The translations under genes were made by a program, and so were the position numbers. Source: Ignavibacteriales bacterium (GTDB taxonomy: Bacteria > Bacteroidota > Ignavibacteria > UBA10030). Taken from it: DNA of 64,000 nt. The number at the start of each line of letters is the position of its first letter. The first letter of the stretch is position 1. The stretch spans positions 10,146 through 74,145 of the forward strand of contig JAPLFR010000010.1 of the NCBI GenBank assembly GCA_026390575.1, given 5' to 3'. Below are positions 2 to 22,049 of the stretch, piece by piece. The notes below the pieces were generated by a model. That model was not told the DNA's origin. It did no database searches and was given only the letters and a program-made list of their open reading frames with translations.

Positions 2-478
2 GCAGATACCATAAATCTCGGTCCCGGTTTTTCATGGGTTTATGCCCGCACGTTAGGAGAATCTGCAACTTGGGTTGTGGATTCAGCGCTGGTAATATGG
101 ACAGGTCAACCTATCATTTCAAATCTGACAGGTCCAGCGACATATACTATAGGTAATGGTGGTTCTGCAGGTCCTTGGACATTTACAATTGCCGATAAAT
201 ACGGGCATCCAATGTCCTCAGGAACAAAAATAACCGTTGCTGGCGCCGGTCTGTCGATCGATGGTGATGCCAACTTGACAATGCCTGATATAGGACCAAG
301 TCAAACAACATTTATTGTCCCTACAGGAGCTGGAATCACTTCATTTACCATCGTTGTTTCTGATGCTGATGCAGGTACAGTTGCTGTACCTCCTATCAAA
401 TCGCTGCTTACCATTACCATCGTTCATCCTGTCTATGGTACATTTACGAGAGTAATAGCTTCTGGGACGGTGCAATGA
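2..478 (+). CDS. C-terminal fragment of a larger secreted/surface protein (5' end outside window)
   Basis: Frame 2 is open from base 2 to the TGA at 476-478, so track ORF 77..478 is only the tail after an internal GTG. Composition is Gly/Thr/Ile/Val-rich and beta-strand-like. A hairpin terminator follows. Confidence 0.5.
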   Translation, partial: ADTINLGPGFSWVYARTLGESATWVVDSALVIWTGQPIISNLTGPATYTIGNGGSAGPWTFTIADKYGHPMSSGTKITVAGAGLSIDGDANLTMPDIGPSQTTFIVPTGAGITSFTIVVSDADAGTVAVPPIKSLLTITIVHPVYGTFTRVIASGTVQ

Positions 479-9812: not shown

Positions 9813-9872
9813 TTTATCATACTTTCAAGAATATTAACGATATGTTCATTTAATTATGTTAGTAGTATTTAG

Positions 9873-9946
9873 TGCACCCAGAGGGAGTCGAACCCCCAAC
9901 CTACAGCTCCGTAGGCTGCCGCTCTATCCAATTGAGCTATGGGTGC
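9873..9946 (-). tRNA. tRNA-Arg(ACG): tRNA-Arg (anticodon ACG)
   Basis: The reverse complement reads GCACCCA-TA-GCTC..GAGC-G-GCAGC-CTACGGA-GCTGT-..-TTCGACT-..TGGGTGC-A, a standard cloverleaf. CCA is not encoded. Confidence 0.9.
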
Positions 9947-18521: not shown

Positions 18522-19561
18522 TGGCGAAGTCATTTAACAAAATCTTAGTTATTCAGACTGCATTCATTGGCGACGCGATTCTCACACTGCCTCTTCTCCA
18601 AGCCCTTAAGCTCAATTATCCGCAATCTTCAATTGATGTCATTGTCGTTCCACGGGCAGCGGAAATATTTGCTCATCATCCCGCCATCTCCAAGATTATC
18701 CAGTATGATAAACGCGGAAGTGATAAAGGATTAAAAGGTTTGTGGCGGCTCAGAACCAAACTCAGTGCGCATCATTATGATCTGATTATTGTTCCTCATC
18801 GATCTTTACGAAGCGCGCTTCTTACTTGGCTCTTGAAACCAACGCTCAGCGTCGGATTTGATAGAAGTGCGGGACCATGGTTATTTAAGAAAAGAGTTCG
18901 CTATAATCCTTCAGATCATGAAATTGAACGGAATCTTTCATTGTTGAGTCCGTTGAAACTTCCTCCACATGAGGCCGAATTACCGCGGCTCTATCCTTCA
19001 AATCAGGATGCGCAAATTATCGATTCTCTTATGAATGATAATGGTTTGAACCGGTATACAAATATTGTAGCAATAGCCCCTGGCACGATATGGAATACGA
19101 AACGCTGGCCGGCAGAAAGATTCGCTTCCCTCTGTAAACAAATCGCTTCAGAAAACGTTGCTCTTGTTCTTGTCGGAGGAAGTGAAGATGAGGTATTGAG
19201 CAAAGAAATCATAGAGATTGCACAAGCAGCACATGTATTCAGCGTTGCAGGCAAGCTTTCACTCCTTCAGTCTGCCGAGTTGATTCGTCGCTGCAACGTA
19301 TTGATTTCGAACGACAGCGCACCGATGCACATTGCCGTTGCTGTGGGAACCCCGGTCGTTGCCATCTTTGGAGCAACAGTTCCCGAATTTGGCTTTGCAC
19401 CGCGCGGACCTAGGGATGTTGTGATAGAAACAAAGGGACTTCAGTGCCGTCCATGTTCAAGCCATGGCGGAAATATGTGCCCTATAAAAACATTCGAATG
19501 CATGCTGTCAATTACTCCAGAAGTTGTTGTGAGTAAAGTGAGGAAATTTCTTCAAAAGTAA
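18521..19561 (+). CDS. GT9-family LPS heptosyltransferase
   Basis: KILVIQTAFIGDAILTLPL near the N-terminus and SNDSAPMHIAVAVGTPVVAIFG near the C-terminus are typical of RfaF/WaaC-like enzymes. The GTG at 18521 abuts the upstream stop; the track ORF begins at 18485. Confidence 0.8.
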   Translation: MAKSFNKILVIQTAFIGDAILTLPLLQALKLNYPQSSIDVIVVPRAAEIFAHHPAISKIIQYDKRGSDKGLKGLWRLRTKLSAHHYDLIIVPHRSLRSALLTWLLKPTLSVGFDRSAGPWLFKKRVRYNPSDHEIERNLSLLSPLKLPPHEAELPRLYPSNQDAQIIDSLMNDNGLNRYTNIVAIAPGTIWNTKRWPAERFASLCKQIASENVALVLVGGSEDEVLSKEIIEIAQAAHVFSVAGKLSLLQSAELIRRCNVLISNDSAPMHIAVAVGTPVVAIFGATVPEFGFAPRGPRDVVIETKGLQCRPCSSHGGNMCPIKTFECMLSITPEVVVSKVRKFLQK

Positions 19562-19656
19562 GGTATTGGAACATTACTTTTTATGGTAGGAATTGACAGA
19601 GAACGAAATGGTCTTAATCCCCACAGATACTGATTCGGATTTATTAATTGGATCAG

Positions 19657-19685
19657 TTGAAATATTAATAAGAAATTATTATAAT
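19657..19685 (+). promoter_or_regulatory. Consensus sigma70-type promoter for the retron-like ncRNA/operon
   Basis: TTGAAA (19657-19662), a 17-nt spacer, then TATAAT (19680-19685). The predicted TSS, 7 nt downstream, falls on G19692, the first base of the a2 repeat. Confidence 0.6.
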
Positions 19686-19691
19686 TCTGAT

Positions 19692-19864
19692 GAGCCGCAT
19701 CGCTTTCTAGCTCTAATTGCTCAGTTATGAATTGAGCATGGACGGTGTTTAGCCATCCACTAAAATGTTTCATGACATACTAGGCGAGAGAAAAGCTCCC
19801 GCCTTGCGCTGCTTCGGCTTGAGCTTTTCTCTCGCCTCGCAGAAAGTAGAAAGCGGTGTGGCTC
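19692..19864 (+). ncRNA. Retron msr/msd-like non-coding RNA
   Basis: a2 GAGCCGCAUCGCUUUCUA (19692-19709) pairs over 18 bp with a1 UAGAAAGCGGUGUGGCUC (19847-19864). The only two non-Watson-Crick positions are G-U wobbles, and only on the + strand. G19710 follows a2. There is a small hairpin at 19718-19738 and a long 17-bp perfect hairpin at 19782-19798/19821-19837. Confidence 0.7.
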
Positions 19865-19881
19865 TCCTTATTTGAATTCCT

Positions 19882-20787
19882 ATGTCTACCATACCTTTTC
19901 CAAATAAATTTCTAGAAAAAATAAAGAAGGTGATCTTGAATAAAGACACTTTCTTGAAATCTGATTCAATAATAGTTTTTGCCTGCGGAGCTAAACCAAA
20001 CGTTACTAATCCGGGCGGTCGAGATAGAGTTATCGAATATGCTGAAAAAAATCTTACACAGTTTCAATTTTTAATGGCGGAACGTTTTTTTTCATTTTTC
20101 CAGAATCATGATAGAATAGATTTGTTATCGTTAGAAAATAAGTTAGCAGAATTTTCTGATTGTATTCTAATTATTCTGGAGAGTGAGAGCACTTTTGCAG
20201 AACTCGGTGCTTTTACTAATAGTGATGAATTAGCTAAGATCGCTCTAGTTATTAATGATATTAAGCATGATAAGAGTGATTCTTTTATTAATCTTGGGCC
20301 ATTAGCTAAAATAAATAAAATATCAAACTTTCGACCAGTTATCCAAGCTAACATGGAAAGCATCTTGACTGTAATTTATGAAGTCCAAAAAAGACTTGAA
20401 AAAATTGAAAGAAAAAATAACATCCGGCTTGATATTAGTACATATGAGAAGTTTTTAGCATGTTCACGGAAGGCAAGAACATTTTTACTTTTGGATCTAC
20501 TGGCATTATTCTCTCCGTTACGCTATTCAGAATTGATTGAAATATTACACTTTATTTATGGAGATCATAGTATTGATATTAATCTTGAAATGGGACTCTT
20601 AGCTGCATTTGGGTTTGTAAGCAAACAAGATGATTACTATTTCCGAACATTAGGTGATAGTAAATTATTCTTCTTCTTCCAAGGTTTGAACATTATTCGA
20701 TTCCGATCAGATATTATTAATTGCTACTTCAAGCTCCGTAAATCTCGTGAACGTCTTGAAATATTAAAGGGACGTACTATCCATTAA
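19882..20787 (+). CDS. Putative retron effector: N-terminal nucleoside 2-deoxyribosyltransferase-like Rossmann domain plus C-terminal wHTH-like domain
   Basis: 301 aa. The pattern SIIVFACGAKP ... LAEFSDCILIILESESTFAELGAF resembles NDT-like/RcaT-type effectors. The C-terminal FLLLDLLALFSPLRYSELIEIL looks like a winged helix. It lies 7 nt upstream of the RT gene. The assignment rests on pattern only. Confidence 0.55.
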   Translation: MSTIPFPNKFLEKIKKVILNKDTFLKSDSIIVFACGAKPNVTNPGGRDRVIEYAEKNLTQFQFLMAERFFSFFQNHDRIDLLSLENKLAEFSDCILIILESESTFAELGAFTNSDELAKIALVINDIKHDKSDSFINLGPLAKINKISNFRPVIQANMESILTVIYEVQKRLEKIERKNNIRLDISTYEKFLACSRKARTFLLLDLLALFSPLRYSELIEILHFIYGDHSIDINLEMGLLAAFGFVSKQDDYYFRTLGDSKLFFFFQGLNIIRFRSDIINCYFKLRKSRERLEILKGRTIH

Positions 20788-20794
20788 GAGAATT

Positions 20795-21739
20795 ATGGCT
20801 AAGGAATTATTAGATATAATATCAGAATTTCTAGGATTCGATCGAAATGAAGTTTTAGATATTGTTAATAAGGCACAGACTTCATACAAAAAATATAATA
20901 TTCGCAAAAAGAGAGGAGGTACACGAATCATCCATCATCCATCAAAGCAGACTAAAGCTATTCAACATGCATTGATGGAGACAGTATTAAGCAAACTACC
21001 AATACATGAGTGTGCGTACGCATATCGTCGTGAATTTAGATCTCCTTTGCGTAGAAACGCAGAAAAGCATTCTTTATTTTCTTATTCTATCAGAATCGAT
21101 TTCAAGGACTTCTTTCCCTCAATTAAGCCTAATGATTTGTTCTCTGTAATCGACAAAAATTCATCAATGGAATTAGATACATCGAATAAGGAGTGTTTAA
21201 CAAAAGCTTTATTTGTGAAGAGCAAAGACAAAAAACAAGGATTAGCGGTTGGTGCGCCATCATCGCCATTGATTAGCAATATTGTAATGTATGATCTCGA
21301 TCAAGAAATCCAAAAAATTGCTGGATCAATTTCGAGAAATAACGCTTACACGAGATATGCAGATGATTTGGTTTTCTCGACCAATAATAAAGGAGATTGT
21401 CGAAAATTTTACAATAAAGTAAAATCTCTTATTAAGAAAACGCAATCACCACGATTGATAATTAAAGAAGATAAGACAGTGTATTTATCTAGGGGAACAA
21501 GAAGAATGGTTACAGGAATTACAATCACGCCTGATCAACATATTTCATTAGGTCGCAGGAGAAAACGTTATATTAAAAAACTTATATTCGATTACAAGAA
21601 TAATAAGATAGAACCTAAAATTAAATCTTATCTTGAAGGATTCATTGCGCACATACTAGATGTTGAACCTGATTATTACAATAAACTTGTGATTAAATAT
21701 GGTGGAGAAACACTAGATCGGATTCGGAAACATAAATAA
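20795..21739 (+). CDS. Retron-type reverse transcriptase
   Basis: 314 aa with KKRGGTRIIHHPS, NAEKH (NAxxH), IDFKDFFPSI, GLAVGAPSSPLISNIVM, YTRYADDLVFS (YADD) and RRMVTGITI (VTG). There is no maturase, endonuclease or other extra domain. Confidence 0.88.
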   Translation: MAKELLDIISEFLGFDRNEVLDIVNKAQTSYKKYNIRKKRGGTRIIHHPSKQTKAIQHALMETVLSKLPIHECAYAYRREFRSPLRRNAEKHSLFSYSIRIDFKDFFPSIKPNDLFSVIDKNSSMELDTSNKECLTKALFVKSKDKKQGLAVGAPSSPLISNIVMYDLDQEIQKIAGSISRNNAYTRYADDLVFSTNNKGDCRKFYNKVKSLIKKTQSPRLIIKEDKTVYLSRGTRRMVTGITITPDQHISLGRRRKRYIKKLIFDYKNNKIEPKIKSYLEGFIAHILDVEPDYYNKLVIKYGGETLDRIRKHK

Positions 21740-21837
21740 AAATCATTTGCCTTTGGTAATAAGCATAAAACCGTATTTATGAATCATTTGAATCTCTTCG
21801 AAAACTTCTCTACATTAAAGTACGAACCAGCATTCTT

Positions 21838-21917
21838 GCGCCCGTAGTTCGAAAATTGCCCGCGAACGCAGTGAGTGGAGGCAATTTTCAGAATCCCGCA
21901 AACGAAGTGAAGCGGGA
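21838..21917 (+). repeat. tRNA-Arg(CCG) 5'-end fragment plus TCCCGC/GCGGGA hairpin repeat
   Basis: GCGCCCGTAG (21838-21847) is identical to the first 10 nt of the tRNA at 21938 and is followed by a TTCGAA T-loop-like stretch. AATTTTCAGAATCCCGCAAACGAAGTGAAGCGGGA (21883-21917) is related to the 47-bp repeats at 51933 and 52019. Confidence 0.6.
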
Positions 21918-21937
21918 CTCGACGGAAATAAAAAAAT

Positions 21938-22011
21938 GCGCCCGTAGCTCAGCTGGATAGAGCGACAGCCTCCGGAGCTGTAGGCCAGGCGTTCGAATCG
22001 CCTCGGGCGCA
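21938..22011 (+). tRNA. tRNA-Arg(CCG): tRNA-Arg (anticodon CCG)
   Basis: GCGCCCG-TA-GCTCAGCTGGATAGAGC-G-ACAGC-CTCCGGA-GCTGT-AGGCC-AGGCG-TTCGAAT-CGCCT-CGGGCGC-A. Confidence 0.9.
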
Positions 22012-22049
22012 CAGAAATAATGAATTTATGAACTGATTTAGGAATCGAC

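Follow-up and report, generated by a model that had tools for sequence, protein, structure and literature searches.

The window analysed here, 64,000 nt of contig JAPLFR010000010.1 from an Ignavibacteriales bacterium (GCA_026390575.1), carries a small low-G+C cassette that is very probably an intact and complete type II-A retron of the St85/Sen2 family, of a subtype closest to II-A1, in which a reverse transcriptase (RT) and its multicopy single-stranded DNA (msDNA) would act as the antitoxin of an NDT-like effector and provide abortive infection. The cassette consists of a non-coding RNA (ncRNA), an effector gene and an RT gene, in that order (Table 1), with a 320-nt leader upstream of the effector and 7 nt between the two genes. 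An initial annotation, made from the sequence alone, had described these two open reading frames (ORFs), their AT-rich composition and their neighbours. These descriptions were borne out: coordinates, lengths and spacing are all correct, G+C content is 30–36% within the cassette vs 42–46% in the flanks, and the cassette lies between a heptosyltransferase ORF that ends at 19561 and tRNA-Arg(CCG). The annotation had also likened the ncRNA-effector-RT order and the protein sizes to those of a Sen2-like type II retron; both match, and both proteins passed the curated St85-family models.

The RT scored 313 bits against the NCBIfam model NF038233 ('retron St85 family RNA-directed DNA polymerase'; curated cut-off 235). 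Its best PADLOC match was RT_II-A (8e-103, 342 bits), RT_I-A reached 287 bits, and the top 25 PADLOC matches were all retron RTs. Among solved retron RTs, Ec83, Ec78 and an entry named only 'Retron' matched at ∼1e-50 and the Ec86 RT at 5.5e-25. The relatives of solved structure, for the RT as for the effector, are retron components without exception. The motifs singled out by the initial annotation are all present: NAEKH at residues 88–92 (21056–21070), the catalytic YADD at residues 188–191 (21356–21367) and VTG at residues 239–241 (21509–21517). By these features the protein is predicted to be a retron-clade RT with the NAxxH, YADD and VTG motifs expected of retrons in general. The RT has 1,558 database homologues at E ≤ 1e-20, the nearest named ones being 43–49% identical; a tblastn search of phage genomes returned only distant retron RTs (35–38% identity) and no II-A1 reference locus. 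Between the window and a related locus with an 85% identical RT (L021), the ratio of nonsynonymous to synonymous substitution rates (dN/dS) of the RT was 0.15 at dS 0.55, comparable with 0.18 for the flanking heptosyltransferase (compared with another relative, L104), and the gene therefore appears to be maintained by selection. Identical copies of the cassette were found in several independent metagenome runs.

The effector had been considered assignable only by fold-level pattern, but plain sequence comparison proved sufficient. It scored 173.6 bits (cut-off 100; E = 6.5e-51; residues 23–280) against NCBIfam NF038232 ('retron St85 family effector protein'), its best PADLOC match was NDT_II-A (6.5e-48, residues 13–286), and a sequence search matched the solved Ec86/Eco1 effector (PDB 7v9x_C, 8qbk) at 6.5e-13 over residues 29–280. 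No model in the local Pfam copy matched the effector, and the precomputed Pfam family PF28093 (STM3845) covers it. The protein is thus predicted to combine an N-terminal NDT-like domain with a C-terminal DNA-binding domain and is encoded beside the RT, the arrangement that characterises type II-A. In Ec86, E106 is reported to be catalytic and S100, S133 and N136 to bind the ligand, all of them being needed for defence (10.1101/2023.08.16.553469). They align with E107, S101, S134 and N137 of the window effector; across 38 homologues, E107 and S134 never vary and S101 is conserved in at least 90%. In PDB entry 8qbl, the very Glu that aligns with E107 is replaced by Ala. The nearest named effector homologues are 37–43% identical. 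Since homologues align from residues 1–7, the ATG start at 19882 is supported; gene callers on identical Logan contigs began the effector 16–18 codons too late (283–285 aa). The dN/dS of 0.48 obtained for the effector C-terminus is unreliable, the ungapped alignment crossing a one-codon indel, and was not used.

Of the ∼173-nt retron layout proposed initially, a2, G19710, the long hairpin and a1 are present; where a single small hairpin had been described, three msr hairpins are predicted. Two of the 18 bp in the a1/a2 inverted repeat are G-U pairs; read from the minus strand they would turn into C-A mismatches, and the plus strand is therefore favoured. A 179-nt stretch containing the element folds at −89.4 kcal/mol vs −51.2 ± 4.1 for shuffled sequences (z = −9.4; 0 of 200 shuffles as stable). 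An Rfam search gave a tRNA as the sole real match and no retron ncRNA family; matches of the mir-14 type were rejected as being simply the msd palindrome. Read directly, the msd hairpin has neither a GATC (Dam) nor a CCWGG (Dcm) site. Most relatives have a strongly conserved linker, CUCUnnUAGGAUUUCUUACCUUUCU, from the conserved msr hairpin to the msd hairpin. In the window this linker (19760–19781) is divergent, CUAAAAUGUUUCAUGACAUACUA, and forms a small alternative hairpin; it may mark the point at which reverse transcription stops. The promoter-like site picked out earlier in the 320-nt leader matches the consensus at 11 of 12 positions and is the best in the region, its −10 hexamer ending 6 nt before a2. 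In the region as a whole there were 11 promoter-like sites, vs 9.8 expected from shuffles, that is, no excess, and because the count is no higher than in shuffled sequence a sigma-70-like promoter upstream of a2 is plausible but unproven. Among related loci, 23 of 55 have a TTGnnn-16..18-TAnnnT site at most 75 nt upstream of the ncRNA. A 73-aa minus-strand ORF (19552–19773), called on identical Logan contigs, overlaps the putative promoter and msr; it has no Pfam match and is most likely a spurious call.

The ncRNA was compared among related loci gathered with an effector-homologue alignment, 14 from representative genomes and 80 from metagenomes; the nearest RT relatives (85%, 67%, 62% and 57% identity) contributed no upstream leader to this comparison, the contigs being too short or their DNA unavailable. 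When the DNA ahead of the effector was searched for long-range helices, 37 of the 73 loci with enough of it showed the same layout: an a2 arm with ...CUA at its end, a G next to it, and an a1 arm starting with UAG..., the whole spanning ∼125–195 nt, with arm sequences that differ from locus to locus. The '...CUA/G' junction (the slash marking the end of a2) was found in most related loci. Retron ncRNAs carry 'two opposing G residues', the branching G lying 3′ of a2 (PMC7736814, Fig. 2 legend), and G19710 and G19846 correspond to these residues: both are invariant (alignment positions G13 and G149) in a core alignment of 15 sequences (A3). In A3, 93.1% of cells were paired and 31 of 40 pairs showed double-sided changes. 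Controls in which the partners were slid by 1–3 columns gave 43–53% pairing and 6–11 double-change pairs, and none of 500 shuffles attained the observed values. As the A3 loci had been picked by a search for the a1/a2 helix (helix 1), the perfect pairing of that helix is in part a product of the selection. No such selection acted on the conserved msr hairpin (helix 2) or the msd stem (helix 4), which were 97% and 92% paired in A3 with compensatory changes.

A covariance model built from the core alignment (R1) gave the window element 115 bits. At E ≤ 1e-3 it matched the plus strand just ahead of the effector in 57 related loci of many phyla; the median gap from the end of the match to the gene was 21 nt (range −15 to 70). 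A further alignment of 27 mostly independent R1 matches (A5), 26 of them outside the training set, was fitted to the model, which favours the structure; in it, 91.6% of cells were paired, with double changes in 37 of 40 pairs, vs 40–49% pairing in slid controls. Across A3 and A5, helix 2 was 93–97% and helix 4 92–98% paired; helix 4 showed compensatory changes at 13 of 13 pairs in A5, as did the inner a1/a2 pairs at 11 of 12 across relatives. When 24 divergent elements were aligned with MAFFT and folded with RNAalifold, a1/a2 and the conserved msr hairpin were recovered and the msd stem was lost by misalignment; the cleaner core set and the covariance model brought it back. With 57 loci and covariation well above the slid controls, the a1/a2 pairing and hairpin architecture on which the initial annotation had staked its reading are conserved in homologous loci. 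The element has the a1/a2 repeats, the G 3′ of a2 with its opposing G, the msr hairpins and the long msd stem-loop of a retron ncRNA.

Table 1. Coordinates of the retron cassette, its parts and its immediate surroundings in the window
Feature	Position	Strand	Basis or remark
Whole inserted low-G+C cassette, ∼2.2 kb	19562..21784	+	Heptosyltransferase stop codon to conserved tRNA-Arg leader
Promoter-like site TTGAAA-17 nt-TATAAT	19657..19685	+	Predicted start at about the first base of a2; putative function
Retron ncRNA (msr-msd), 173 nt	19692..19864	+	Minimum free energy fold, covariance model, covariation
a2 arm of terminal inverted repeat	19692..19709	+	18 bp with a1; compensatory changes among relatives
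Predicted branching (priming) G, directly 3′ of a2	19710	+	Invariant in A3; priming role presumed from retron biology
msr hairpin 1	19718..19738	+	Sequence and length vary among relatives
msr hairpin 2, conserved stem-loop UGGACGGUGUUUAGCCAUCCA with GGUGUUUAGCC motif	19739..19759	+	Likely RT-recognition stem-loop
Weak third msr hairpin	19765..19778	+	Predicted fold
Long msd hairpin, putative msDNA stem-loop template, conserved base GGCGAGAGAAAA/UUUUCUCUCGCC	19782..19837	+	22-nt arms, 91% complementary
a1 arm of terminal inverted repeat	19847..19864	+	Pairs with a2
Effector/toxin gene, 301 aa, RcaT/Ec86-effector homologue	19882..20787	+	Family models, Ec86 structure match
Retron reverse transcriptase gene, 314 aa	20795..21739	+	Family models, motifs, dN/dS
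Ancestral tRNA leader	21785..21847	+	Outside retron
Mini-insertion	21848..21936	+	Outside retron
tRNA-Arg(CCG)	21938..22012	+	Outside retron

Mestre et al. divide type II-A into II-A1, II-A2 and II-A3 (PMC7736814). Subtype II-A1 has clade 1 RTs and an ncRNA family (IA/IIA1) in common with type I-A, its members including Sen2/St85, Vc81 and Ec73; II-A3 has clade 9 RTs and includes Ec86 (PMC7736814). In the ranking of PDB scores, type I-A RTs reached 165–173 bits with the window RT vs 92 bits for the Ec86 RT. Because the RT is nearer to type I-A than to Ec86, the gene order is that of Sen2 (msr-msd, effector, RT; PMC11701397) and the effector is full-length, unlike the split effector of II-A2, the cassette appears most like subtype II-A1. 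The msr/msd reference sequence used for Ec86 is 100% identical in 48 E. coli genomes. R1 recovered this ncRNA at its exact coordinates with filters off (17.7 bits, E ∼0.002, E-values being rough) and missed it under default filters, aligning its a2-UUA/G junction and hairpin GGAUGUUGUUUCGGCAUCC to GGACGGUGUUUAGCCAUCC of the window. An element upstream of an St85-family effector on an E. coli P2-like plasmid (L106) scored 20.9 bits and has an identical GGUGUUUAGCC loop.

For msDNA synthesis, antitoxin function, trigger and effector chemistry we drew on Sen2 and Eco1. In Sen2, the RT and msDNA form an antitoxin that restrains RcaT (10.1101/2020.06.22.160168), and phage functions that methylate or degrade msDNA release the toxin (Nature 2022, as cited in PMC12640716). 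The RT, msDNA and effector of Eco1 assemble into filaments; once phage Dcm has methylated the msDNA stem-loop, these become active and exhaust NAD+ and adenine nucleotides (PMC12640716; 10.1101/2023.08.16.553469). We expect the window cassette to work in a similar way, catalysis falling to Glu107, and take the tripartite toxin-antitoxin scheme of Sen2 as the best model at hand. One promoter probably drives the ncRNA, effector and RT as a single transcript. As the msr stem-loop binds the RT thumb in solved retron complexes and is described as essential for RT recognition (PMC12640716), the RT would recognise the conserved msr stem-loop at 19739–19759. The 2′-OH of G19710 would then prime reverse transcription of msd, from about 19846 back through the hairpin at 19782–19837, to give a branched RNA-DNA molecule, the msDNA, with a DNA part of very roughly 65–85 nt. 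The RT and msDNA would bind the NDT-like effector and hold it inactive, and a phage that modifies, degrades or binds the msDNA would release or activate it. Acting through an active site that contains Glu107, the effector could then attack pools of nucleotides or NAD+, so that growth of the infected cell stops.

The cassette occupies a site that varies among close relatives. These share the order GH57, amylase, YjbQ, acyltransferase, heptosyltransferase, tRNA-Arg(CCG), TPR protein, GAF-SpoIIE, STAS and anti-sigma kinase, and their flanks are 83–84% identical to the window at the DNA level; alignments of the window to L104 and L105 run up to 19541 and resume from 21785. In L104 and a JGI contig the site is empty, with ∼180–190 nt between the heptosyltransferase and TPR genes. 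In L105, a Bacteroidota metagenome-assembled genome (GCA_050015675.1), the slot is taken by a minus-strand gene for a RES-domain toxin (L105 6059–6802), with no obvious partner antitoxin ORF of at least 30 aa upstream of it. In L021 the tRNA leader, tRNA and TPR gene downstream of the retron are the same as in the window, which shows that a related lineage has it at this site as well. No flanking direct repeats or att sites were found around the 2.2-kb cassette, which has no integrase. Since relatives have an empty site or a RES gene in this slot, the cassette sits in a small heptosyltransferase/tRNA-Arg(CCG) hotspot, and this short intergenic site appears to act as a hotspot for small toxin/defence cassettes lacking an integrase. 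The setting differs at L019 2839–4409, where an HTH_17 gene and a phage-type tyrosine integrase lie downstream of a relative with 61–62% identical effector and RT. There the same retron lineage appears to be carried by an integrative element, whereas the insertion in the window has no integrase.

The RT might instead belong to another class (group II intron, diversity-generating retroelement (DGR), Abi or DRT/UG), with the upstream hairpins incidental. It does have the common RVT_1 fold (PF00078, 72 bits), and weak matches to such families appear. However, the group II intron, Drt2/3a/4 and AbiA models gave 24–69 bits against cut-offs of 200–450 (group II intron 68.8/300, Drt3a 54.7/200, Drt2 43.9/390, AbiA 31/250), i.e. 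4–19 times under, whereas the retron St85 RT model was passed (313 vs 235). The top PADLOC matches are all retron RTs, the retron-specific NAxxH and VTG are present, the ncRNA co-occurs and covaries across related loci, and the locus has neither an intron RNA domain structure nor a DGR template/variable repeat. Given the sub-threshold scores, the retron motifs and the covarying ncRNA, an RT of another class is effectively refuted, and we leave it next to no chance. That the cassette is a decaying or domesticated relic, and has ceased to make msDNA or to protect against phage, is very unlikely. The msr-msd linker is indeed atypical for the family, and any activity of the cassette is a prediction from sequence; against this, both ORFs are full-length with intact catalytic residues, all ncRNA helices are intact, the dN/dS of the RT is near that of the flanking housekeeping gene, and identical copies recur in several independent metagenome runs. 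The retron could also be functional and yet serve chiefly to stabilise its locus, as a toxin-antitoxin module of the addiction or stress-responsive kind, and not as phage defence. Sen2 was originally described as a toxin-antitoxin system sensitive to cold and to anaerobiosis (10.1101/2020.06.22.160168), and the same slot is occupied by the RES-domain toxin gene in L105. According to the summary in PMC12640716, Sen2, Eco9 and Eco1 were later shown to be phage-defensive with phage-encoded triggers; the two roles are not mutually exclusive, and we consider a chiefly toxin-antitoxin function improbable.

Several points weigh against a phage-defensive II-A1 retron as set out above. The sigma-70-type consensus may not fit the promoters of this host, and the linker at 19760–19781 deviates from the family consensus AGGAUUUCUUACCUUUCU. 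Phe70 stands opposite Ec86 D69, and the invariant Glu67 is shifted by one residue from Ec86 E65 in the alignment, so the substrate pocket may differ from that of Ec86. The subtype assignment was drawn from the ranking of hidden Markov model and PDB scores, from gene order and from the resemblance of the ncRNAs, and the ncRNA similarity to the E. coli references is weak (17.7–20.9 bits, with rough E-values). Finally, msDNA production, toxicity and phage defence are extrapolated to this locus and its close relatives from Sen2 and Eco1.

Downstream of the retron, a ∼89-nt insertion (Table 1) is specific to the window: it occurs there in one copy and is missing from L104, L105 and L021. It is bounded by an 11-nt direct duplication TGCGCCCGTAG (21837–21847 and 21937–21947), which includes the first 10 nt of the tRNA, and it shifts tRNA-Arg(CCG) ∼100 nt away from its conserved leader. 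The insertion holds two hairpins (GAAAATTGCC...GGCAATTTTC and TCCCGC...GCGGGA) and folds marginally better than shuffles (z = −2.0). The duplication resembles the target-site duplication of a tiny mobile element, or an excision footprint. Elsewhere in the window, tRNA-Arg(ACG) (9872–9946, minus strand) is ∼80–82% identical to tRNA-Arg(CCG), an ordinary similarity between isoacceptors that accounts for secondary BLAST matches of L021, L104 and L105 at 9872–9946.

The initial annotation had ranked the locus as a candidate for an undescribed anti-phage system, which does not hold: the effector can be assigned by sequence, and NCBI already names St85-family RTs and effectors in seven phyla, namely Planctomycetota, Bacteroidota (Roseivirga, Flavobacteriaceae), Balneolota (Fodinibius), Acidobacteriota, Verrucomicrobiota, Desulfobacterota and Bacillota. 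Mestre et al. had reported in 2020 that retrons are patchily distributed beyond the Proteobacteria (PMC7736814). Judged by its sequence, the cassette is a well-formed example of a known anti-phage system and not a new class. A full-text literature search found no paper about retrons in Ignavibacteria; the host lineage is therefore probably unstudied, the system itself being of a known kind. The value of the locus is modest, as a cleanly delimited and apparently functional St85-family retron in an uncultured FCB-group bacterium. Together, the empty site in L104, the RES gene in L105 and the same-site orthologue in L021 show integrase-free turnover of tiny defence or toxin-antitoxin cassettes at one intergenic hotspot. 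The cross-phylum alignment and covariance model show that E. coli and these lineages have kept a common msr recognition hairpin, and could aid annotation of retron ncRNAs in metagenomes or the choice of compact retrons for editing tools. It is conceivable, although we find it doubtful, that the window retron forms a distinct environmental St85 branch with its relatives from Bacteroidota/Ignavibacteria, Planctomycetota, Desulfobacterota, Balneolota, Verrucomicrobiota and uncultured lineages. The ncRNA signature of such a branch may be the msd stem base GCGAGAGAAA, the linker AGGAUUUCUUACCUUUCU and the CUA/G junction, accompanied in the effector by Phe in place of Ec86 Asp69. If the branch is real, its members might sense other phage cues, or hydrolyse another nucleotide substrate, than Sen2 and Eco1.

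Among known retrons, the type I-A systems Eco7 (Ec78) and Eco4 (Ec83) have RTs that are among the closest solved relatives of the window RT (E ∼1e-47 to 1e-50), and types I-A and II-A1 have one ncRNA family, IA/IIA1 (PMC7736814). Their effectors are a Septu-type ATPase and an HNH nuclease, whereas the window has no such genes and encodes only the NDT-like effector. Eco1 (Ec86, E. coli, II-A3; structures 7v9x, 7xjg and 8qbk–8qbm) has an effector that is homologous over both domains and 28% identical in the NDT domain; its catalytic Glu106 and Ser100, Ser133 and Asn136 are kept in the window effector, whereas D69 is replaced by Phe. Both ncRNAs have the a2-UA/G junction and the GGAUGnUGUUUnGnCAUCC hairpin, but the window msd hairpin lacks CCWGG. 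The gene order of Ec86 is effector-ncRNA-RT, in contrast with ncRNA-effector-RT in the window, and its RT is far from the window RT (30% identity; 92 bits vs 165–176 for clade-1 RTs). Sen2 (St85, msrmsd-rcaT-rrtT) comes from a gammaproteobacterium, Salmonella Typhimurium, whereas the window derives from an uncultured Bacteroidota/Ignavibacteria-like host and its msd hairpin has no GATC. Compared through the NCBI curated models and the published description, Sen2 has the same gene order, the same two NCBI protein families and similar protein sizes, and its RT belongs to the clade common to type I-A retrons (PMC7736814), in which the window RT, by its score ranking, would also fall.

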